The notes beneath the pieces were generated by a model that worked only from the letters and a program-made list of their open reading frames with translations, was not told where the DNA came from and made no database searches. DNA of 57,930 nucleotides from Minisyncoccota bacterium (GTDB lineage Bacteria > Patescibacteriota > Minisyncoccia > UBA6257 > GWB1-50-10), in contig JAGVBB010000002.1 in NCBI GenBank assembly GCA_020059915.1, forward strand, positions 128,129 to 186,058, written 5' to 3'. Shown here piece by piece: positions 45,484-57,930 of this stretch. How positions within the stretch are numbered: position 1 is the stretch's first letter; the number at the start of each line of letters is the position of its first letter. The translations under genes were made by a program, and so were the position numbers.

Positions 45484-46161
45484 ATGTTTTTAAAAATTGC
45501 CCACCGTGGCGCATCAAAAAAAGAACCAGAAAATACACTTCGGTCGTTTCGACGCGCCCTCTCGTTAGGGTCTACATTTATAGAGTGTGATGTTCATATA
45601 TGCAAAACGGGAGAATTAGTAGTAATGCACGATGAAACGGTGGATAGAACAACAAATGGAAGGGGGAAGATACACAATAAAACATATCAAGAACTTCTTG
45701 CTCTTGATGATGGAGTTGGTGAGCATGTTCCGAGGTTACAAGAAGTTATTGAGCTGGTTCACAACAAAGCAAGAATCAATATTGAATTAAAAGGAAGGGG
45801 AACCGGACACGTACTTGCATATACACTTGCTGCATATTATTCGGCGGGATGGAAACTTGGGGATTTTTTTATTTCCTCATTTTCAAGGAGAGAACTTCGT
45901 GCTTTTAGAAAACTAGATAGAGAGACACCGGTTGGATATTTATTGACTGTAAATATGTTTGGAGCGATTCATTTTGCAAAAAAAATAAATGCATATTCTG
46001 TTAATCCTAATGTTCATCGAGTAACTAAACATTTTGTTAATAAAGCACACAAGAATAATCTAAAAGTTTTTGTCTATACCGTTGATACTCCAGAGCAGGC
46101 AAAAAAAATGAAGGAAATGGGAGTTGATGGGGTATTTTCTGATTGTCCAGAAGAGATATAG
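45484..46161 (+). CDS. Glycerophosphodiester phosphodiesterase
   Basis: IAHRGAS...PENT, ECDVH, HDETVDRTTNG, NIELK, GVDGVFSD. Confidence 0.93.
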   Translation: MFLKIAHRGASKKEPENTLRSFRRALSLGSTFIECDVHICKTGELVVMHDETVDRTTNGRGKIHNKTYQELLALDDGVGEHVPRLQEVIELVHNKARINIELKGRGTGHVLAYTLAAYYSAGWKLGDFFISSFSRRELRAFRKLDRETPVGYLLTVNMFGAIHFAKKINAYSVNPNVHRVTKHFVNKAHKNNLKVFVYTVDTPEQAKKMKEMGVDGVFSDCPEEI

Positions 46162-46197
46162 TTCCCAAATACAGGTTCTTTATATATACTGGAGTAA

Positions 46198-47478
46198 ATG
46201 TTTTGGAGAAGACATCAAATGGGGAAACTTGGTTCTGCCGCAAAAGTAGGATTTTTTTTAGCAACAAGACAAATCAAGCGGGCAAGTATCTGGACTAATG
46301 TGCTTGTGGTGTGCGTTATGGTTCTTACATTTCTCAACCTTGTTGTAGTAAGTGGTATTCTTGTTGGATTAATTGAGGGCGCAACACAAGCGGTTCAAAA
46401 ACACTATATAGGCGATGTGTTTATAACGCCGTTAAAAGAAAAAAATTATATTGAACGCAGTTCTATAATTATGAAAACCATCAGAAGTATTCCTGGTGTG
46501 TCTGCGGTTTCTGGGCGATATATAAGTTCTGGAAACGTCGAAGCAGAATATAAAAAAGCAAAGAAAAATTCAAACGATAAAGGAAATGAGGTGAGCACTA
46601 CCTTTGTGGGCATAGACCCGATTGATGAAGATGCGGTTTCTGGATTGTCTCGTTTGGTTATTGAGGGGGAATACTTAAATAGAAATGATTATGACCGAGT
46701 ACTTGTGGGGGGGATGTTATTAAAAAAATATTTGGACTATGACTCCACTACATTTCCTGCGCTTTCTAATATAAATGTTGGTGACAAAATTCGTATAACG
46801 GTAAATGGAAATGTTCGTGAGGTTTTTGTTAAGGGAATTACGAAAAGTAAGGTTGATGAAATCGACAGAAGAATATTCTTTGTTGATTCCCAATTTCGTG
46901 GTTTGGTGGGGAGAGATGATTACAATCTTGGTGAAATTTCTATTGTTACAAAACAAGGTGTTTCCCCCTTTGTTGTGAAACAAGCGCTTCTCGCAAATCA
47001 TTTTGATGACTATTCGTCTATAAAAGCGGGGAACGAGGCAGAGCCAAAGTTTATACAAGATCTTAGGAATACATTTTCGATGCTTGGCACGGCTATTAGT
47101 TCTATTGGACTGATTGTCGCCGCAATAACCATCTTCATTGTTATTTTTATTAATGCGGTAACAAGAAGAAAATTTATAGGAATTTTAAAGGGGATAGGAA
47201 TTCGACCAGTTACTATAGAATGGGCATATATATTCCAAGCATTTTTTTATGCGACCGCAGGAACAATAATAGGATTAGTTATTGTGTTTGGAATTTTAAA
47301 GCCATATTTTGATGCAAATCCAATAAATTTTCCATTTAGTGATGGCATACTCGTTGCGACTGCCAGTGGGACACTTATACGGATTGCGGTGCTTTTTTTA
47401 GCAACGCTTATTGCGGGATATATTCCTGTAAAAATTATAACAAGACAAAATACACTTGATGCGATATTAAACCGATAA
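46198..47478 (+). CDS. ABC transporter permease (FtsX/MacB/LolE-like)
   Basis: TM1, large extracytoplasmic domain, 3 C-terminal TMs, RRKFIGILKGIG. Confidence 0.88.
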   Translation: MFWRRHQMGKLGSAAKVGFFLATRQIKRASIWTNVLVVCVMVLTFLNLVVVSGILVGLIEGATQAVQKHYIGDVFITPLKEKNYIERSSIIMKTIRSIPGVSAVSGRYISSGNVEAEYKKAKKNSNDKGNEVSTTFVGIDPIDEDAVSGLSRLVIEGEYLNRNDYDRVLVGGMLLKKYLDYDSTTFPALSNINVGDKIRITVNGNVREVFVKGITKSKVDEIDRRIFFVDSQFRGLVGRDDYNLGEISIVTKQGVSPFVVKQALLANHFDDYSSIKAGNEAEPKFIQDLRNTFSMLGTAISSIGLIVAAITIFIVIFINAVTRRKFIGILKGIGIRPVTIEWAYIFQAFFYATAGTIIGLVIVFGILKPYFDANPINFPFSDGILVATASGTLIRIAVLFLATLIAGYIPVKIITRQNTLDAILNR

Positions 47479-47480
47479 CT

Positions 47481-48155
47481 ATGATAGAAGCAAAAAAAAT
47501 AGTAAAAAAATTCAAAAGTGGAAGTTCGGAAATTACTGTCTTGAAGGGAGTTGATTTTTTTGTGAAGGATGGGGAATTTATTTCCATTATCGGTCGTTCC
47601 GGATCGGGAAAGAGTACGTTGATGTATCAATTAAGTTTACTCGATAGGCCAACCTCTGGTTCTATTGAAATTGGGGGGAAGAGTGCGGATATGTTGAGTG
47701 ATAAAGAAAGAACAATTTTTAGATTATTCGAGTTGGGATATGTATTTCAAGATTATGCACTTATTCCTGAGCTTAATGCCATAGAAAATGTTATGATTCC
47801 ACTTTTGGAACAAGGAATAAATAAGTTTGACGCAAAAAAAATATCCGCAAAAGTTTTGGACCGCGTTGAATTAAGTGATAAGTACAATAATCTTCCCAAC
47901 CAGCTTTCTGGTGGTGAGCAACAAAGGGTTTCTATTGCGCGAGCAATGGGACATAGGCCAAAAATATTATTTGCAGACGAACCAACTGCAAACTTAGATA
48001 ACGATACATCGTTATCAATTCTTAAAACATTCAAAGAACTTCACGCAGATGGTCAAACAATTATTATGGTTACTCATGAACCAGAATATGTTCAATATAC
48101 TGACCGAGTAGTTACTTTATTTGATGGAGAGATTGTGAGAAATGAAAAAAACTAG
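47481..48155 (+). CDS. ABC transporter ATP-binding protein (LolD-like)
   Basis: GRSGSGKST, LSGGEQQRV, FADEPT, VTHE. Confidence 0.95.
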   Translation: MIEAKKIVKKFKSGSSEITVLKGVDFFVKDGEFISIIGRSGSGKSTLMYQLSLLDRPTSGSIEIGGKSADMLSDKERTIFRLFELGYVFQDYALIPELNAIENVMIPLLEQGINKFDAKKISAKVLDRVELSDKYNNLPNQLSGGEQQRVSIARAMGHRPKILFADEPTANLDNDTSLSILKTFKELHADGQTIIMVTHEPEYVQYTDRVVTLFDGEIVRNEKN

Positions 48156-48353
48156 GACTACTAATTGTCAATTTTGAAAAAGTATGTGCGGTGTGCTCGC
48201 GTTAAGTGCCCACCAGTTTCAATCAGTATAAGGGTTTCTTGGGTTTTTTACATGCCGAAATTTCAGAGGCTCGCATCGGGGTCAAAATGAGACATGAGAC
48301 AAAAAACACACAATTGCGCATCGTGTGTTTCTGTTCTTTTTGGGACTCAATAG

Positions 48354-48896
48354 CTATTCAATGTCTTTTATCGTATTAACCACCTCTAGGTGTTCTGGGT
48401 TTATCCTGTTGTAGTCAATAACATAGTTTCCGTTTTTTCGTGTGACAAAGATGAAGTCAATATCAATTCCCAAACCAGTCGATGCAGTTAAATGTTCTTT
48501 AGTAATTTGTCCGTTATCAAAGATTTTTTCTCGTCCTGTTATCTTCTCATATGGGAGGTCTTCCTTATTGTATTCTTGTATAAAAGCTTCAATGTCTCCA
48601 GAAAATGGTTTTATAAAAAGTCCACTTCCACCCTCCGCATATTTTGGATTATATCGCTGTTCGCCTGCAAAAATCGTGCCGTTCTTTTCACTTACAACAA
48701 GTGGGTCTGAATACTGAAATTCAACTCCTAGATTCTCACTTTTATAGGTTTTTAGTGTAGAGCTTGCTTCTGTATTTATTGGCTGGTTATCTGTTATAGC
48801 ATCTTGTTTGTCTATTGAGTTGTTTGTGTATATAAAATATCCAACTCCAAGAACAACAATTCCAATTATTGGAATAAGAGCTTTAATTGGTTTCAT
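48354..48896 (-). CDS. Hypothetical membrane-anchored secreted protein
   Basis: Start MKPIKALIPIIGIVVLG at 48896; TYKSENLGVEFQY motif typical of CPR surface proteins. Confidence 0.7.
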   Translation of the reverse strand: MKPIKALIPIIGIVVLGVGYFIYTNNSIDKQDAITDNQPINTEASSTLKTYKSENLGVEFQYSDPLVVSEKNGTIFAGEQRYNPKYAEGGSGLFIKPFSGDIEAFIQEYNKEDLPYEKITGREKIFDNGQITKEHLTASTGLGIDIDFIFVTRKNGNYVIDYNRINPEHLEVVNTIKDIE

Positions 48897-49041
48897 TCTC
48901 AAAAAATAGCATTTTCTAGGAATATATACAAATTTATTGACAGATAACGGATTGTGCCGAAACGCAAACAAATCTGTATGTGCTTGCCCCACCCTCCCGT
49001 GCGCACACAGAAAACCACTCGCTAACACGAGTGGCTCCCGA

Positions 49042-49509
49042 TTATGAAAACAATAGAATAGTAAATACGAGAATACCAAACCCTACAGCAAGTAGATTGT
49101 AGGAATTTTCAAAGAATTTTCCTTCAGAACCCTTTTGTCCAGATTTTTTCCATTCTTTCGGATAAATAGATTCTTTTTCTTCATTAAAAAACGCCTCTTC
49201 GTAAAATCCCAATGCGTTTTCAATTTTTGCCAGTATTTTTCTTTGATTGTTAAACCCTTTCTCTAAATCGGCAAAATAATATTTCCTTATGACAAGCCAA
49301 ACAATCAGAACAAAAATTGCTAATGCAATTTTTTGGATTTTATCAAAACATATATTTGATTGAAAAATATATCCAGACGAAGCAAGAAGTAGCCCGAGTA
49401 TCCAAAGAGATACAGTTTGCACTCTCTCACGAATAGTATGCACAGAAGCGTTGCGCTCTTGGAGCGCCTGTATCAAAATATCAAGTTTTTGTTGATCATT
49501 CATTTTCAT
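49042..49509 (-). CDS. 3-TM membrane protein, putative CBASS effector
   Basis: Starts 3 nt downstream of the CD-NTase stop; two TMs, a soluble loop and a C-terminal TM. Confidence 0.7.
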   Translation of the reverse strand: MKMNDQQKLDILIQALQERNASVHTIRERVQTVSLWILGLLLASSGYIFQSNICFDKIQKIALAIFVLIVWLVIRKYYFADLEKGFNNQRKILAKIENALGFYEEAFFNEEKESIYPKEWKKSGQKGSEGKFFENSYNLLAVGFGILVFTILLFS

Positions 49510-49512
49510 ATT

Positions 49513-50391
49513 TTAGTTAATCAACGCATAAACTTTTGCAACAAAATCTTTCGCTTGATCGTGGGTTCTTTTGGTTTGTCCCTTAAATAACCACATTAGA
49601 TCGCTAACCTCAGCATATTCATTTGCCTTTGCGGTATTACCCATATCATTCCAAATTTCTACAATAACCGCATTTACAGCGTCTTTATGGTTATTTTTAT
49701 TGAAATGATGATGGGGAATATTCCACACCAGACACTCAACAAAGAATGAAGGCATGGCATCTGTGGCAAGCTGACCAGAATCAATCATGTGATTTCGGCA
49801 ATTTTTAATCATACGAACGACCTTTTTATACACCTCATTTGTGTCGCTATGCTTTTGCACACCGTTTTCGTGGTGTTGTTTCGGAAAACTCCTTACATCA
49901 TCGCCAGAATCAGAAAGTAATTTTATACCTTCGGCCTCAACCGTTGTGGCAGTTCTGAATCTTTTAAAAACGAAACATGGGATTACATCGGTGTTTACGC
50001 GATAGGTATTAGCGTTTATCCTTATGCACTTATTTTTTCTTTCAACATATCCTGGAAATTTGCTCTTGAGCAAATTCTCAACCTCATTTTTGAATTGAAC
50101 AAATGTATAAGAGCTATCACTGTAGATACTTTTATGGAGCGCCTTATCTTGAGGAGTGAGGTTAGAAATTTCTGGAAAGAACGCGTCTTTATAGCAAACC
50201 ACAATATCAACATCACTATCTTGCCTAACATTTGTTTTGTTTTTATATGACCCCTGCAAAAATACCTCCACTTTTGAGCCAAAATGGTCTTCAAGGATTT
50301 TTCTTATTGAGGCAACAGTTGCAACACACTTGGCATTTTCAGTGTCGGTTAGAGGTCTTGCCCAATTTTGGAGTTGTTGTTCCGTAATCAT
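49513..50391 (-). CDS. CD-NTase (cGAS/DncV-like nucleotidyltransferase, CdnE-like), CBASS cyclase
   Basis: LQGSYKNKTNVRQDSDVDIVV, DVIPC, EGI, FPKQHHENGVQK...YKKVVRMIKN, PSFFVECLVWN. Confidence 0.9.
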   Translation of the reverse strand: MITEQQLQNWARPLTDTENAKCVATVASIRKILEDHFGSKVEVFLQGSYKNKTNVRQDSDVDIVVCYKDAFFPEISNLTPQDKALHKSIYSDSSYTFVQFKNEVENLLKSKFPGYVERKNKCIRINANTYRVNTDVIPCFVFKRFRTATTVEAEGIKLLSDSGDDVRSFPKQHHENGVQKHSDTNEVYKKVVRMIKNCRNHMIDSGQLATDAMPSFFVECLVWNIPHHHFNKNNHKDAVNAVIVEIWNDMGNTAKANEYAEVSDLMWLFKGQTKRTHDQAKDFVAKVYALIN

Positions 50392-50405
50392 AGAAAGTTG
50401 TGAAT

Positions 50406-50442
50406 ATTTAGATTTGTGTATTTTCTAAATCTTTTCTATAAT
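50406..50442. promoter_or_regulatory. Divergent promoter with palindrome ATTTAGA-N11-TCTAAAT
   Basis: Inverted repeat 50406-50430 over the -35 region; TATAAT at 50437-50442, 6 nt before ATG 50449. Confidence 0.55.
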
Positions 50443-50448
50443 ACTACT

Positions 50449-52170
50449 ATGGCAAAAATAAAGCAACAAGAAGTCTTCGACTTCGTCCGAAAATATACCT
50501 CCAAAAATAAATTTGCCCCCTCTTTAGAGGAGATAAAGAATCACTTTAGGTTTGCTTCTGTTTCTACCGCTCACTATCACATTAAAAAACTAGAAGACGC
50601 TGGTCTTTTAAGGAAGCAAGAGAATAAAGCAAGGGCTATAAATCTTGATATAGAACAAAAAATGATCCAGGTTCCAATATTGGGAGCAATTGCTGCGGGT
50701 AGCCCGATTGAAGCAATAGAAGATCGGCAAGAGACTATTGCAATCGCGCAATCTGCAATTTCAGGATTCAGGTCAAATGATGTTTATGCTCTTCGTGTAC
50801 AAGGGCAAAGTATGATCGAAGAAGGGATTGACGATGGTGACATTGTCATCATTTTAAATCAACATAGTCCAAATAATGGAGATAAGGTTGTAGCCCTCAT
50901 AAATAACGAAGAGGTAACTTTGAAAAAGTTCTTTAGAGAAAAAGATAAAATAAGACTGCAACCAGCAAACTCAACAATGAACCCGATCTTTGTAGAACCT
51001 GATGAGCTAACGATTCAAGGAAAAGTTTTGATGACCGTAAAAACTGCCGAAAGAATCAAACCAACTCCACTAATTAAAAACCCGCTACCACGAAAAAGTC
51101 TCTCGTTTGGAGAACCAAATACACTTTTTGAGCTTGAGAAGCCCCCAAAATTTCCATCGACACGATTTCAAGGAAGCAAAACAAAACTTCTAAATCAAAT
51201 TTGGGAGCATATCAAGGATATAAAGTTTGATTCAGCGGTAGACTTGTTTGGAGGAACGGGTTCCGTTGGTTATATGCTCAAAAGTAAGGGTAAGCAGGTT
51301 TTTTATAACGACTTTTTGAAAAGTAATTATTTAGCAGGACTTGCTCTTATTGAAAATTCAAAAGAAACACTGGATGAAAATGATATAGATTTCATCTTAT
51401 CAGTACACAGTAATATTGATTATCCTGATTTTATTCAGAAAACATTTGAAGATACATACTTTACCGATCAAGAAAATAAATGGCTAGATATTGTTTCAAC
51501 AAACATTAGGCAGATGAAAAACAAGTACAAGCAAGCACTTGCTTATTATGCTTTGTTCCAGTCTTGCATTATCAAACGACCATACAATTTATTTCACAGA
51601 AAGAATCTTTATGTTCGTTTTGCAAATGTTGAGAGAAGTTTTGGAAATAAAATCACATGGGATAAGCCATTCGAGGAGCATTTTATAAATTTTGTAAAAG
51701 AAGCAAACGAAGCTGTCTTTGACAATAACCAAAAAAATAAGGCACTGAACTATGATGCAATGTTTTTGGATACGAAAGCCGATCTTGTATACATAGACAC
51801 TCCTTATATTTCAAGCAAGGGTTCTGCCGTTGATTACTTAGATTTTTACCATTTTCTTGAGGGTATAAGTGACTATACGAATTGGTACAGTAAAGTTGAT
51901 TATAAAAGTAAGCATCGGAAATTTAAGTCCGAAAAATCAATTTGGGCAGATAAAAAAAGAATTGCACAAGCTTTTGATGATCTTTTTAGAAAATATAAAG
52001 ATTCGATATTAGTCGTTTCCTATAGATCTGATGGCATACCCACTCCAGAAGAATTGATAAAAATTCTCAAAAAATACAAAAAGGACGTAAAGGAAGTTTT
52101 TAGAAGCGATTATAAATACGCTTTGAGTAAAAATGGTGAATCAAAAGAAATACTTATTGTCGCAAAATAA
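50449..52170 (+). CDS. LexA repressor fused to a Dam-family N6-adenine DNA methyltransferase
   Basis: wHTH (PSLEEI..HF..SVSTAHYH..KLE..G.L), Ala-Gly site IAAGSP, Ser (GQSM) and Lys (TLKK), then RFQGSK, DLFGGTGSV (motif I) and YIDTPY (motif IV variant) in one ORF. Confidence 0.9.
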   Translation: MAKIKQQEVFDFVRKYTSKNKFAPSLEEIKNHFRFASVSTAHYHIKKLEDAGLLRKQENKARAINLDIEQKMIQVPILGAIAAGSPIEAIEDRQETIAIAQSAISGFRSNDVYALRVQGQSMIEEGIDDGDIVIILNQHSPNNGDKVVALINNEEVTLKKFFREKDKIRLQPANSTMNPIFVEPDELTIQGKVLMTVKTAERIKPTPLIKNPLPRKSLSFGEPNTLFELEKPPKFPSTRFQGSKTKLLNQIWEHIKDIKFDSAVDLFGGTGSVGYMLKSKGKQVFYNDFLKSNYLAGLALIENSKETLDENDIDFILSVHSNIDYPDFIQKTFEDTYFTDQENKWLDIVSTNIRQMKNKYKQALAYYALFQSCIIKRPYNLFHRKNLYVRFANVERSFGNKITWDKPFEEHFINFVKEANEAVFDNNQKNKALNYDAMFLDTKADLVYIDTPYISSKGSAVDYLDFYHFLEGISDYTNWYSKVDYKSKHRKFKSEKSIWADKKRIAQAFDDLFRKYKDSILVVSYRSDGIPTPEELIKILKKYKKDVKEVFRSDYKYALSKNGESKEILIVAK

Positions 52171-52173
52171 GCA

Positions 52174-52917
52174 CTACTTTTTCTTCCATTCGAAATATTC
52201 CGTGATGTTATGATATGGCTGTTCTTTCCCCATATCCTTGGCAATTTTTAGTTGCAAGAAGTTTCTCCAATAGTCCTCAAAGACTTTTTCTCCGTGTTTT
52301 GCAAACACGCCAGTTCCGTTTCGTAATATCTCAATATCAGAAGATGAACCAATATTTGCGGTGTTGCCACTTCCTGGCCTATCAGCGGAAAGTTTATATT
52401 TTTCCTGAACAATTATTTCAATATCTTTAATAACTGGTTTTATTTCATCGATTTTTGTTAGGGGAACAATTTCTCCGTCTTTGTCTTCCTCTCTTGTATA
52501 AATAAAACCAAGAACTAAATGTTCTGAATATTCGTGATAAGGGAACATAATGTTCTTTGTTGGGTTTCTCAAATATCCAGTGTACGATCCGAGAGTAAAT
52601 CCAGCGACACGATCCTTAGTTTTTCTGTAAGTACTTTTAATATCAAGGGCGATTTTTTCTCCCGTTGGCAAAACTAGGGTAAGGTCTGGATAAACAGTTT
52701 GTCGATCAGATTGTATAACTTTGATTTTGTACTTCTCTCCAATATCTAAAATAATCGGTGTTGTTACAAGCTCAAATACTTTAGAAATAAGTTTAGTGTC
52801 ACTATTGATCGTATAAATACGATTTTGAGAATCAATGACACCTTTAATATCCCACCCTAGTCCGATAAGAGCGATTTCTTCTTCAAGTATTTTCTTTAGA
52901 TCAAGTTTTTTGGTCAT
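52174..52917 (-). CDS. EcoRV-family type II restriction endonuclease
   Basis: SDTKLISKVFE, YPDLTL, IALDIKSTY (PD..DxK), FTLGSY, recognition loop GSGNTANIGS. Confidence 0.9.
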   Translation of the reverse strand: MTKKLDLKKILEEEIALIGLGWDIKGVIDSQNRIYTINSDTKLISKVFELVTTPIILDIGEKYKIKVIQSDRQTVYPDLTLVLPTGEKIALDIKSTYRKTKDRVAGFTLGSYTGYLRNPTKNIMFPYHEYSEHLVLGFIYTREEDKDGEIVPLTKIDEIKPVIKDIEIIVQEKYKLSADRPGSGNTANIGSSSDIEILRNGTGVFAKHGEKVFEDYWRNFLQLKIAKDMGKEQPYHNITEYFEWKKK

Positions 52918-52919
52918 AA

Positions 52920-53141
52920 TTATTTAACAAAAAAGTCTAAAGACTTTTTATAAAGTTTTGCAAATTCTTTCAGTTGTAGAACATCAAATCGTCTTTGTCC
53001 CGATTCAATCTTTGATACATACGACTGAGTTCTGCCGAGTTTTTCAGCAACTTCAACCTGCCCAAGACCAACCTCAATACGCGCTTGTTTTAAGCGTTCA
53101 ACAATTTTTTTGTGATCATCTTGATAAATTGCTCTTGGCAT
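52920..53141 (-). CDS. XRE-family HTH regulator (C-protein-like controller)
   Basis: RLKQARIEVGLGQVEVAEKLGRTQSYVSKIESGQR, directly upstream of the endonuclease. Confidence 0.85.
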   Translation of the reverse strand: MPRAIYQDDHKKIVERLKQARIEVGLGQVEVAEKLGRTQSYVSKIESGQRRFDVLQLKEFAKLYKKSLDFFVK

Positions 53142-53358
53142 ATGTGTATATCATAATATTCCATTGTGTATTATTCCAAATTGCCATATAATGTATTTAT
53201 GAAGCGGCGGAAGTAAAACCAAAAAATTTCCTTTCCATATTTGTCCGGCTCCCCCCACGCCCCCGCCGAAGAAAAAGGAAAGGTAAGGAAATTTTTTTGG
53301 TTTGGCTAGCGACCGAAGGGAGCACGAGGTGCATTAGTCGAATGCATCAGGATTTTTT

Positions 53359-53426
53359 GCGGGAATGCGTTTGTGTCGCGCCTGCGGCGCGACCCCATTT
53401 CGGCTTCCAATTCCGATTTTCAATTT
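53359..53426 (-). repeat. Post-tRNA-Ser conserved segment, copy A
   Basis: Reverse complement matches 57841-57908 at 67/68 nt. Confidence 0.9.
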
Positions 53427-53516
53427 TGGCGGAGGGGGAGGGATTTGAACCCTCGAGGGGTTTTCACCCCTGCACGATTTCGAGTCGTGTGCCTTCGACC
53501 ACTCAGCCACCCCTCC
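53427..53516 (-). tRNA. tRNA-Ser(CGA)
   Basis: GGAGGGG...CCCCTCC-GCCA, anticodon loop CTCGAAA, long variable arm. Confidence 0.95.
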
Positions 53517-53520
53517 TGTG

Positions 53521-53592
53521 TGCCCTCGGAGAGAATCGAACTCCCATCTTCGCCTTAGGACGGCACTGTTCTATCCGTTGAACTACAAGGGC
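53521..53592 (-). tRNA. tRNA-Arg(CCU)
   Basis: GCCCTTG...CGAGGGC-A, D-loop CGGATA, anticodon loop GTCCTAA, GTTCGATT T-loop. Confidence 0.9.
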
Positions 53593-53661
53593 TTCTGTCT
53601 ATTTATAGATTAATCTCATGAGAGAGTAAAGATTTGTATTTTTTTATACCTAGGGTATTAT

Positions 53662-53982
53662 GTGAATATGTTTGATCGATTCACCTTTGATCGGGACAAA
53701 CTAAATAAGGATGACAAGAAGGAAGTCTATAAACGGCTTGAAAAGACGGAGGCGGATCTTGGGCGGGAATTAGAAACCGATGAAACACCAGACATGATTG
53801 CGCTTGAACTGGAGTGTGCTGATGGGGGAGAAAAGAAACATTGGTTTATGAAAACAAAAGAACTTCCCCTCAATGATGGATATGTGAAACTCGCAGATAT
53901 GCTTGAGGCAACCGCAAAGTTTCCTGATGTTTCCCTTACTGAGGCGGTAAAAAAACTAAAAACAGAAAAGAAAGAAAAATAA
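53662..53982 (+). CDS. Hypothetical protein
   Basis: 106-aa charged ORF between the tRNA pairs; start GTG 53662 or ATG 53668. Confidence 0.6.
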   Translation: MNMFDRFTFDRDKLNKDDKKEVYKRLEKTEADLGRELETDETPDMIALELECADGGEKKHWFMKTKELPLNDGYVKLADMLEATAKFPDVSLTEAVKKLKTEKKEK

Positions 53983-53987
53983 TATAA

Positions 53988-54061
53988 GGGCGATTAGCTC
54001 AGCTGGTTAGAGCGTTACATTGACATTGTAAAGGTCACAGGTTCGAGTCCTGTATCGCCCA
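53988..54061 (+). tRNA. tRNA-Val(GAC)
   Basis: GGGCGAT...ATCGCCC-A, anticodon stem TTACA/TGTAA, loop TTGACAT. Confidence 0.95.
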
Positions 54062-54099
54062 CAAAAATTCCAGTAGATCTGGGATTTTGTTTTAACATT

Positions 54100-54170
54100 G
54101 GGCCTATAGTATAGCGGTAGAACGCCTCCATGGCATGGAGGAAGTCGGGGTTCGACTCCCCGTAGGTCCA
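54100..54170 (+). tRNA. tRNA-Ala(GGC)
   Basis: GGGCCTA/TAGGTCC with G3:U70, anticodon stem CCTCC/GGAGG, loop ATGGCAT. Confidence 0.93.
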
Positions 54171-54302
54171 CAAAAACAAGGAGTGTCTTCGCGACTATGT
54201 TTTTGTAGGATGTCGCATACAAGTGCGACGCCACAAAGAAAATCAGAGCGTCTTCGCGACTATGCACTTGGTTAAATTTACTATTTTTTCTATCATTTAA
54301 TT

Positions 54303-55115
54303 ATGAAACACAAGTTTGACCAATTTCCGATGTTTCCTCCAAATATTGAAAAAGATCTTCAAGTAAAGAATCTTATTGAAAAATCTGGATTGGGAAAGTT
54401 TTCAGAGGAAGAAAAAAAAGAGTTTGATTCATGGAAACAAAATATTCCCCTTTCAAGCCTAGAAAGTCCATTGGGGGGAAAAAGTGCAGAAGATATTTTA
54501 GATTTATTGCCAAATGTTCCGAATCACACAAAAGAACAAGTGGGTTTTTTTGTTGAAATAAAGGAGGAATTATTAGTAGACACAATTTTTGAAAAATTTG
54601 TGAAAGAAAAAAATCAATATGAATTAGCGACTGAGAAAGTTAGTGATTTGGTTTTTTTCTTTTCTGTTGGAGCGCGCACTCATGGAGTTGGAAAAAAAAA
54701 CAAAGGATTTTTTTATGCACATTCGCATCCAGATGTTTTTAGCGCATTTGAACTTGATGAGAAAAAGCAGAAAAATCTTCCTATTCTCTTCAATAAAGGC
54801 GTTTTGCCGAGCGAGGGAGATCTCCAGATATTTTTAAGTGAGAATGAAATAAAAAAAGGTGCCAATGAAGAGAGTGGAGAGAAAATATATTCAAAGAACG
54901 GATGGATTGAGATTAAACAATCTGGTGATGTTGATATAAAAAAAATTCCATTTAAATTAGAAAAATACAGAGACGCTTATTTTGAGCTATTTAGTGGGAG
55001 AAATGAATTTGGGTTTACAACAATTGAGGGGACAAAAGAGTATTTTAAAAATAATTTCCAACTTGATTTAGAATATCATGAATTTAAGGAAAAAGGTGAT
55101 GTGGGCGAAAAATAA
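54303..55115 (+). CDS. Hypothetical protein with JAB/MPN-like HxHP...PSxxD motif
   Basis: FYAHSHPD...VLPSEGDL. Confidence 0.6.
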   Translation: MKHKFDQFPMFPPNIEKDLQVKNLIEKSGLGKFSEEEKKEFDSWKQNIPLSSLESPLGGKSAEDILDLLPNVPNHTKEQVGFFVEIKEELLVDTIFEKFVKEKNQYELATEKVSDLVFFFSVGARTHGVGKKNKGFFYAHSHPDVFSAFELDEKKQKNLPILFNKGVLPSEGDLQIFLSENEIKKGANEESGEKIYSKNGWIEIKQSGDVDIKKIPFKLEKYRDAYFELFSGRNEFGFTTIEGTKEYFKNNFQLDLEYHEFKEKGDVGEK

Positions 55116-57752: not shown

Positions 57753-57840
57753 GGAAGGTTGGCAGAGTGGTCGAATGCGCCGCACTTGAAATGCGGTATG
57801 CCGAAAGGCATCGGAGGTTCGAATCCTCCACCTTCCGCCA
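57753..57840 (+). tRNA. tRNA-Ser(UGA)
   Basis: GGAAGGT...ACCTTCC-GCCA, anticodon loop CTTGAAA, long variable arm. Confidence 0.95.
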
Positions 57841-57908
57841 AAATTGAAAATCGGAATTGGAAGCCGAAATGGGGTCGCGCCGTAGGCGCGACACAAACGC
57901 ATTCCCGC
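57841..57908 (+). repeat. Post-tRNA-Ser conserved segment, copy B
   Basis: AAATTGAAAATCGGAATTGGAAGCCGAAATGGGGTCGCGCCGTAGGCGCGACACAAACGCATTCCCGC, inverted copy of 53359-53426. Confidence 0.9.
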
Positions 57909-57930
57909 CAAAAATTCCCGAATCCAAAAG

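Follow-up and report, generated by a model that had tools for sequence, protein, structure and literature searches.

Methyltransferase (MTase)-repressor fusions such as M.SsoII and M.Ecl18kI carry an N-terminal DNA-binding domain and repress their own promoter via an overlapping operator, in a control region held in common with a divergent gene, as stated in two reviews (PMC3874152, PMC12707154). In cyclic-oligonucleotide-based antiphage signaling systems (CBASS), repressors encoded divergently from the CBASS operon are inactivated upon DNA damage, CapH/CapP by proteolysis (10.1101/2022.04.27.489752) and the BrxR-type protein CapW by binding to single-stranded DNA (ssDNA) (PMC11662680). In Caulobacter and its relatives, the SOS box is the direct repeat GTTCN7GTTC (PMC9578287). 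Here we compare with these systems a locus from the genome (686 kb, 7 contigs) of a Minisyncoccota bacterium. The locus lies in a stretch of 57,930 nucleotides (nt), hereafter the window, and all coordinates are those of this whole stretch. Its central gene encodes a LexA repressor fused to a D12 adenine MTase; a CBASS gene pair lies divergently on one side, and a gene for an EcoRV-like restriction endonuclease (REase), together with a controller (C) protein gene, lies convergently on the other. We propose that the fusion is a methylase autorepressor, cleavable in response to DNA damage, that would also gate a swappable cargo slot, here filled by the CBASS genes. Judged from sequence comparisons, we put the probability of this reading at roughly 0.55.

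The methyltransferase carries a complete LexA

The fusion protein begins with a winged helix-turn-helix (HTH; residues ~1 to 70), followed by Ala83-Gly84, Ser121, and Lys159 and by an MTase part (residues ~240 to 573) with the motifs DLFGGTG and DTPY. It matched the Pfam families LexA_DNA_bind (PF01726; 1e-12), Peptidase_S24 (PF00717; 7.8e-31), and D12 MTase (2.1e-17). On the lexA model TIGR00498 (cut-off, 110.95 bits) it scored 169 to 172 bits, and residues 5 to 194 matched LexA in the Protein Data Bank (PDB; entry 3k2z; E, 1.3e-30). The LexA domain set is complete, comprising the N-terminal winged helix and the C-terminal S24 domain. An in-frame GTG farther upstream, at position 50416, is not used by 39 homologous clusters of 566 to 573 amino acids (aa).

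Ala83/Gly84, Ser121, and Lys159 presumably correspond to A84/G85, S119, and K156 of Escherichia coli LexA. These residues were invariant in an alignment of 62 diverse full-length fusions and also in 16 close ones. All 62 diverse proteins carried both LexA_DNA_bind and S24; their enzyme parts matched N6_N4_Mtase (48), D12 (14), and N6_Mtase/Eco57I (4), with some overlap. Unless self-cleavage is under selection, it is difficult to see why the Ala-Gly, Ser, and Lys residues should be invariant across three MTase families. The genome also encodes recA (503 bits; model cut-off, 325 bits).

A stand-alone LexA-like gene is present in the same genome (G000:C2:73318-73905, minus strand; L002, 1489-2217). 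Its product is 28% identical to the fused copy and retains the Ala-Gly, Ser, and Lys residues; at 92.7 bits, it scored below the lexA cut-off. An 11-bp-period AGTAT repeat lies near the start of this gene. Among 31 related genomes, a lexA match in a long frame of 495 to 588 aa, taken as the fusion, occurred in 6, and the divergent stand-alone type occurred in 8. The presence of the fusion in only 6 of these relatives makes it an accessory gene.

A protein search, for which 120 matches were listed, returned at least 39 clusters of 566 to 573 aa with all three domains (54 to 98% identity), as well as MTase-only relatives of 355 aa. Eight of the 120 listed matches (P0058, P0068, P0078, P0091 to P0094, and P0115; ~445 aa) have a MerR-type HTH fused to the same D12 MTase family, which suggests that the D12 methylase captured different DNA-binding heads repeatedly. 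In species-representative genomes, the full fusion was present in 5 of the best 80 loci, and an EcoRV-like gene adjoined the MTase relatives in 62 of them. A metagenome scan in which the LexA part of the fusion alone served as the query returned 80 loci: 56 complete open reading frames (ORFs) of 440 to 624 aa, 14 frames cut by a contig end and already longer than LexA, 4 stand-alone genes, 1 broken gene, and 5 that were not classed. By these matches, the LexA-MTase fusion is a large, widespread family in bacteria of the candidate phyla radiation (CPR) type and no peculiarity of this island. We found no published LexA-MTase fusion in literature searches and the text of two restriction-modification (R-M) reviews, the coverage of which did not extend to supplements and subscription journals. 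In locus L155 (from 1376), a LexA-like ORF ends after 49 aa, and a 428-aa ORF on the same strand follows 9 nt on; this is probably a frameshifted fusion.

A direct repeat in the methylase promoter covaries with the recognition helix

The fusion gene and the gene for the CBASS cyclase, a cGAS/DncV-like nucleotidyltransferase (CD-NTase), are separated by a short shared control region (Table 1). The ATG of the fusion lies only 6 nt past the -10 element, and the MTase mRNA would therefore be leaderless.

We compared the window with 85 other, related loci (660,766 nt in total for the 85). The 90 nt 5' of the fusions displayed a common architecture: two half-sites of the form TTTC[T/G][A/G]T, spaced at 11 bp and pointing either way, are placed inside or beside the -10/-35 pair. 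The direct-repeat pattern TTTCTAT-N4-TTTCTAT was present in 73 of 87 regions of 120 nt upstream of fusions, compared to 33 of 1718 random control windows from the same loci; the pattern was derived from the same upstream sequences on which the count of 73 rests. A palindromic operator, TTC[G/T]-N16-[C/A]GAA, fitted only 7 of the 87 loci, and the direct repeat was taken instead. Genome-wide, five matches to the operator pattern were found; only the one described here lies in a promoter region, and the others are intragenic or at a 3' end. Nothing similar was found upstream of recA.

The sequence of the half-site followed that of the recognition helix, as counted by hand in an 86-row table that includes near-duplicate rows. 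Where the residue following the conserved His of the helix is Gln or Glu, half-sites were TTCGG in 20 of 23 cases and TTC[T/G]A in none. Conversely, with Phe, Tyr, or His at the same position, they were TTC[T/G]A in 61 of 63 cases and TTCGG in none. This tracking fits direct read-out by the fused LexA head.

A motif resembling a DnaA box (TGTGGATAA or its complement, either way round) was seen just 5' of the -35 or the operator in 51 of the 87 promoters, compared to 17 of the 1718 control windows. L006 has a perfect copy and the window a degenerate one, and the motif marks the left end of the homology between near-identical modules. A one-mismatch copy lies upstream of the stand-alone lexA-like gene of this genome. 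A connection of these promoters with DnaA or with replication stress is possible. Perfect DnaA boxes (TTATCCACA) number 17 in the genome (~8.5 expected), a count that is uninformative on the promoter-linked box.

CBASS genes recur in a proposed swappable slot upstream of the fusion

The CD-NTase of the window matched CdnE in the PDB (6e0m; E, 7.6e-85), and the PADLOC cyclase match (Table 1) bears out its earlier assignment. It scored below the NCBIfam cut-offs, with 224.9 bits on DS2_2_antiphage (cut-off, 350) and 55.9 and 47.3 bits on the CBASS_cyclase models (cut-off, 200). The translation contains GS (residues 47 and 48), DxD (60 to 62), and D135, which we take to be the CD-NTase active-site motif. 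The adjoining protein with three transmembrane stretches (3-TM) matched no Pfam or PADLOC family and no PADLOC effector model. Its look-alikes in an atlas search were unnamed clusters of 150- to 185-aa membrane proteins, with PF24838 in 13 to 31% of the members, which is a lead only and no assignment. No further ORFs, and with them no candidates for Cap2, Cap3, or HORMA genes, were seen in the operon. Together, the CdnE-like cyclase and the presumed membrane effector give the pair the appearance of type I CBASS. Neither a CapH/CapP-type XRE and metallopeptidase pair nor a WYL repressor was present in the islet; the one weak capH match there (1.9e-7) came from the C protein, which sits with the nuclease.

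CD-NTases were found in the window and in 4 of the 85 other loci (L008, L093, L116, and L127); each one immediately precedes the fusion gene on the opposite strand, and tblastn with all five cyclases detected no further copies in the 85 loci. The accompanying fusions measure 573 aa (window), 569 aa (L008), 621 aa (L093), 519 aa (L116), and 501 aa (L127) and belong to different methylase types; the cyclases, the effectors, and the gene order vary as well. The adjacency is therefore not unique to this genome; its being unique was part of what the initial annotation had named as speaking against its interpretation. In L093 and L116, the operator lies within the 17-nt spacer of a promoter facing CBASS (TTGACT-17-TA.ACT).

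Considering all loci, the nearest upstream ORF was divergent in 66 and co-directional in 8; these and the downstream counts given below refer to ORFs of at least 100 aa from a simple longest-ORF caller. Other occupants of the slot are included in Table 1. An exchange of cargo is seen in L006: it matches the window at 93% identity along 50394-53303 and at 88% along 48948-49039, and it has PDC-M48A/B in place of CBASS. The hairpin in the latter segment folds at -29.6 kcal/mol (z, -3.76), and none of 200 shuffled sequences folded as well. Homology to L006 and L007 starts at 50394 to 50406. In the comparison with L006, the right flank of the cargo begins 3 to 12 nt from the CD-NTase ATG, and ~11 nt are specific to the cargo. 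With so little upstream DNA of its own, the cargo would have its promoter in the shared control region, unless it is served by antisense read-through from the C/REase operon. Of 41 module pairs with an identity of 80% or more across the start codon, 36 lost homology 43 to 97 nt upstream. Homology on the far side of the cargo was seen for L006/window, L109/L110, and L129/L136 and, in short pieces, for L149/L150.

The nuclease operon has a controller of its own

The REase matched EcoRV in the PDB (1az4; E, 2.4e-45), with the YPD...DIK motif and the recognition loop GSGNT.NIGS aligned, and it is accompanied by the adjacent N6-adenine MTase of the D12 class. GATATC, the candidate recognition site, occurs 201 times in the genome where 270 occurrences would be expected; its ratio of 0.74 ranks fifth from the bottom among 64 palindromic hexamers, which is only a mild avoidance. 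The C protein was matched weakly by the PADLOC Control_protein models (1e-4). Its homologues occupy the same position in 20 loci, with different nuclease families alongside. Upstream of the C gene in the window lies a C-box repeat (TAATATTCCA/TATTATTCCA), and the repeated pattern is conserved 5' of C genes elsewhere. The LexA-type operator was found in none of 18 C-gene promoters. Since the methylase promoter has a LexA-type operator and not a C-box, there would be two separate regulators. GTGTAT, present in the methylase promoter and twice 5' of the C gene, was considered as an Esp1396I-like C-protein site and dropped because L006 and L007, both 93% identical to the module, do not conserve it.

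In 48 loci, the next ORF downstream of the fusion converges on it, and in 10 it runs in the same direction; these ORFs included several unrelated nuclease clusters. On a 2-Mb contig (L010, 6391-17086), two LexA-MTase R-M systems lie side by side, one with a D12 MTase and an EcoRV-like nuclease and the other with an N6_N4 MTase, a nuclease resembling MvaI/BcnI, and a C protein that shares 74% identity with that of the window. An insertion sequence (IS) transposase and a GmrSD-type gene adjoin the pair.

Layout and borders of the islet

In the same-genus genome G001, ~190 nt stand in place of 48155-53423; the block is therefore a 5.3-kb insertion beside tRNA-Ser(cga), and this comparison indicates that it is gained or lost as one unit adjoining that tRNA gene. 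The inserted segment contains, in addition to the CBASS pair and the R-M genes, a PsbP_2-like lipoprotein gene that the initial annotation had not counted. We somewhat favor the view that it is a horizontally acquired defense islet built on a portable R-M chassis. The initial annotation had listed five genes with 2- to 3-nt gaps around one 57-bp gap, ending near tRNA-Ser(CGA), and no integrase. The ORF and tRNA coordinates agree with that description (gaps of 3, 57, 3, and 2 nt, in order), and no integrase- or recombinase-sized ORF was seen in the inserted segment. An Rfam search of 48000-54400 returned four tRNAs and sub-threshold matches, and nothing else.

Table 1. Features of the islet in the window and occupants of the corresponding slot in other loci
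Feature	Position	Strand	Basis or remark
Inserted islet	48155-53423		G001 aligns to 46103-48154 and resumes at 53423-54063, with ~190 nt between
PsbP_2-like lipoprotein gene	48354-48896	-	Profile match, E 1.2e-7; within inserted segment, absent from G001
Conserved left flank of cargo slot	48948-49039	-	88% identical to L006 341-433, there 3' of a different cargo
Terminator-like hairpin and U-rich run	~49010-49039	-	Directly after 3-TM stop
3-TM protein, presumed CBASS effector	49042-49509	-	Three hydrophobic stretches in translation
CD-NTase, CdnE-like	49513-50391	-	PADLOC Cyclase PDLC00801, E 1.2e-92
Shared 57-bp control region	50392-50448		Between CD-NTase start and fusion ATG
Degenerate DnaA-box-like motif, TGTGAATAT	50399-50407		Sequence read
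-35-like element, TTGTGT	50414-50419	+	Sequence read; 3/6 consensus matches
Putative operator half-sites, TTTCTAA / TTTCTAT	50422-50428 / 50433-50439		In -35/-10 spacer region
-10 element, TATAAT	50437-50442	+	ATG 6 nt further on
LexA-D12 adenine MTase fusion	50449-52170	+	From ATG; 573 aa
EcoRV-family REase	52174-52917	-	PF09233 Endonuc-EcoRV, 3.3e-71; convergent with fusion
C protein, HTH_3	52920-53141	-	HTH_3, 2.3e-12
C/REase promoter with C-box repeats	53142-53185	-	TTGGAA-18-TATGAT; C start 8 nt past -10 (promoter scan)
Right-end ~100-nt inverted-repeat-rich element	53200-53303		3' side of islet beyond C gene; conserved with L006 (4560-4663)
tRNA-Ser(cga)	53427-53516	-	Borders islet
PDC-M48A/B	L006		Divergent slot occupant
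Pycsar cyclase	L112		Slot occupant; 2.5e-61
PD-T7-4	L128		Slot occupant; 6e-84
OLD-type nuclease	L157		Slot occupant; 1.7e-71
NsnA	L165		Slot occupant
RmuC	L009		Slot occupant

The inverted-repeat-rich element at the right end is present in a single copy in the window. L006 carries a second, inverted copy at 1-99, the opposite end of its contig, and the two copies bracket the cargo and the R-M genes. A mobile hairpin repeat and a flank used in recombination are both conceivable for this element. The 79 nt 3' of tRNA-Ser(cga) (53352-53430) are 97.5% identical, in inverted orientation, to those of tRNA-Ser(tga) (57837-57915), including a terminator-like hairpin.

Contigs of two metatranscriptome runs (X16 and X17) cover parts of the methylase, REase, and C genes and little of CBASS; such contigs cannot show transcription, starts, or levels. 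In a word search of sequencing runs, no run contained half or more of the words (best, 0.25). A DNA contig from run X4, ~95% alike, bridges 50353-53133, and the same junction therefore exists in another sample.

Discussion

We favor, by a little over even odds, a mechanism made up of predicted steps, namely, operator binding, cleavage, induction, and co-regulation of CBASS. The C protein and its C-boxes would run and time the nuclease operon (C and then REase). The fused winged-helix head would bind the direct repeat TTTCTA-N5-TTTCTA (11-bp period) within the methylase promoter. In the resting state, the fusion would thereby repress its own gene and, as the operator lies in the 57-bp region that would also hold the CBASS transcription start, very probably the divergent CdnE/3-TM operon too. 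DNA damage or RecA filaments on ssDNA could arise where methylation falls behind and the cell restricts its own DNA, or where the DNA of an infecting phage is cut. This would stimulate self-cleavage at Ala83-Gly84, the DNA-binding head would be detached, and both genes would be derepressed. More methylase would protect the chromosome, a safety loop after self-inflicted breaks, and abortive-infection cargo would be armed on the same signal, which parallels CapH/CapP.

The initial annotation had described a single coupled module, with CBASS as a damage-induced second line behind R-M. The composite of a type I CBASS and an R-M system with a LexA-fused MTase stands, and coupling of the methylase to CBASS is partly supported by the recurrence of the adjacency, the conserved operator in the shared region, the helix covariation, and the cargo swap. 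The description needs correction in that the nuclease is under separate C-protein control and in that CBASS is one of many slot occupants, housekeeping genes included.

Several observations weigh against the gating of CBASS by the fusion. The helix/half-site covariation may rest on few independent events (possibly two clades, with near-duplicate rows). A consensus promoter scan found no sigma-70-like site on either strand within 50392-50448, and the -35 of the methylase promoter has three of six consensus matches. Antisense read-through from the convergent C/REase operon could reach the CBASS genes, and a rise in methylase during infection could help the phage. Further observations agree with the main rival, which we consider possible if rather unlikely, that the R-M module and CBASS are independent neighbors in a defense island, with CBASS expressed constitutively from a weak promoter of its own or by read-through and the LexA head regulating the methylase gene only. 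Defense genes cluster generally, and the lack of a consensus promoter for CBASS suits this explanation. So does the finding that in 37 of the 41 pairs of near-identical modules no further homology is seen beyond about -50 to -97, as expected also for a cargo-less module inserting at many sites. L007 contains the same module (93.6% identity) without any cassette, with a 299-nt gap and then unrelated genes. Among 20 sampled upstream neighbors, 12 had no PADLOC match, and Pfam identified DegV, MFS, ClpB-like, ParA-like, glutaredoxin, and IS genes among 90 upstream proteins. Independent neighbors are harder to reconcile with the position of the CD-NTases, all five of which are divergent and upstream with none elsewhere in the 660,766 nt, with the 66:8 divergent bias, and with the operator inside the CBASS-facing promoter spacer in L093 and L116. 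It also counts against this rival that the cargo contributes only ~11 nt of its own ahead of the CD-NTase start codon and that a shared terminator follows the cargo in both L006 and the window.

Two other explanations differ in what the LexA part does. It might be only a constitutive autorepressor and dimerization module of the methylase, like the N-terminal HTH of M.SsoII or M.Ecl18kI, with no DNA-damage input. MTase-repressor fusions without a protease are established (PMC3874152, PMC12707154), and the MerR-type heads on the same D12 family (8 of the 120 matches listed) imply that any DNA-binding head may do. The Ala-Gly, Ser, and Lys residues, invariant in 62 of 62 fusions from three MTase families, and the presence of recA nevertheless make this explanation improbable. 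Alternatively, the fusion might be the global SOS repressor, having captured an R-M methylase, with CBASS as one member of the SOS regulon. Its score of 172 bits on the lexA model, compared to 92.7 bits (below the cut-off) for the stand-alone copy, would suit such a role. We regard it as highly improbable, given that the 5.3-kb insertion containing the gene is missing from the corresponding site of the same-genus G001, that presumed fusions (frames of 495 to 588 aa) occur in 6 of the 31 related genomes and the divergent stand-alone type in 8, that only one of the five operator-pattern sites in the genome is a promoter region, and that nothing operator-like lies upstream of recA. Genome-wide control of an SOS regulon by the fusion was not what we observed.

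If the fusion is indeed a damage-cleavable methylase autorepressor that gates a cargo slot, it would unite two fields that are mostly studied separately, the restraint of R-M toxicity by C proteins and MTase autorepressors and damage-armed abortive infection (CapH/CapP and CapW). It would also provide a simple, testable form of layered immunity wired through one polypeptide and explain why methylases from three unrelated families have all kept a cleavable, complete LexA. A more tentative and, in our estimate, doubtful extension is that the LexA-methylase modules of CPR-type bacteria are portable, damage-gated expression docks. One LexA head would silence the methylase and whatever cassette is plugged in, breaks made by the module's own nuclease, whether in phage or self DNA, would raise the RecA signal that frees both, and restriction itself would be the sensor that arms a second layer. 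In practical terms, the locus would offer a small promoter cassette that works in both directions and responds to damage, a predicted protein-DNA recognition code relating a helix residue to an operator dinucleotide, and, in the LexA-MTase promoter, a genomic marker for new defense genes in uncultivated small-genome bacteria.

Comparison with known systems

The arrangement would join two known kinds, the MTase-repressor fusion and the damage-gated CBASS. Like M.SsoII and M.Ecl18kI, the methylase of the window has an N-terminal DNA-binding head, a predicted operator in its own promoter, and a control region in common with a divergent gene. Unlike in those enzymes, the head is a complete LexA with the S24 module, the operator is a direct repeat, and the divergent partner is a swappable defense cassette and not the nuclease, which has its own C protein. 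The nuclease side resembles the C-controlled R-M systems PvuII, Esp1396I, and AhdI in that a small HTH gene lies just 5' of the REase gene and would be co-transcribed with it, C-boxes overlap the promoter, and the MTase gene is convergent; it differs from them in the methylase promoter, where a LexA-type operator takes the place of a C-box.

The cyclase and membrane-effector genes form a two-gene operon like that of type I CBASS with CdnE (PDB 6e0m family), although the 3-TM effector matches no PADLOC effector model and the cyclase falls below the NCBIfam cut-offs. In contrast to CapH/CapP and CapW, the repressor would be a RecA-type self-cleaving LexA rather than an XRE/metallopeptidase pair or a WYL protein, and it is physically part of another defense enzyme. 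With the LexA of Caulobacter, the fusion shares the full LexA domain set and, as predicted, a direct-repeat operator of the same 11-bp period, and one subgroup of operators reads literally GTTC-N7-GTTC. Unlike Caulobacter LexA, the fusion would be no global regulator; this LexA copy is accessory, sits on a mobile islet, and is joined to an enzyme.

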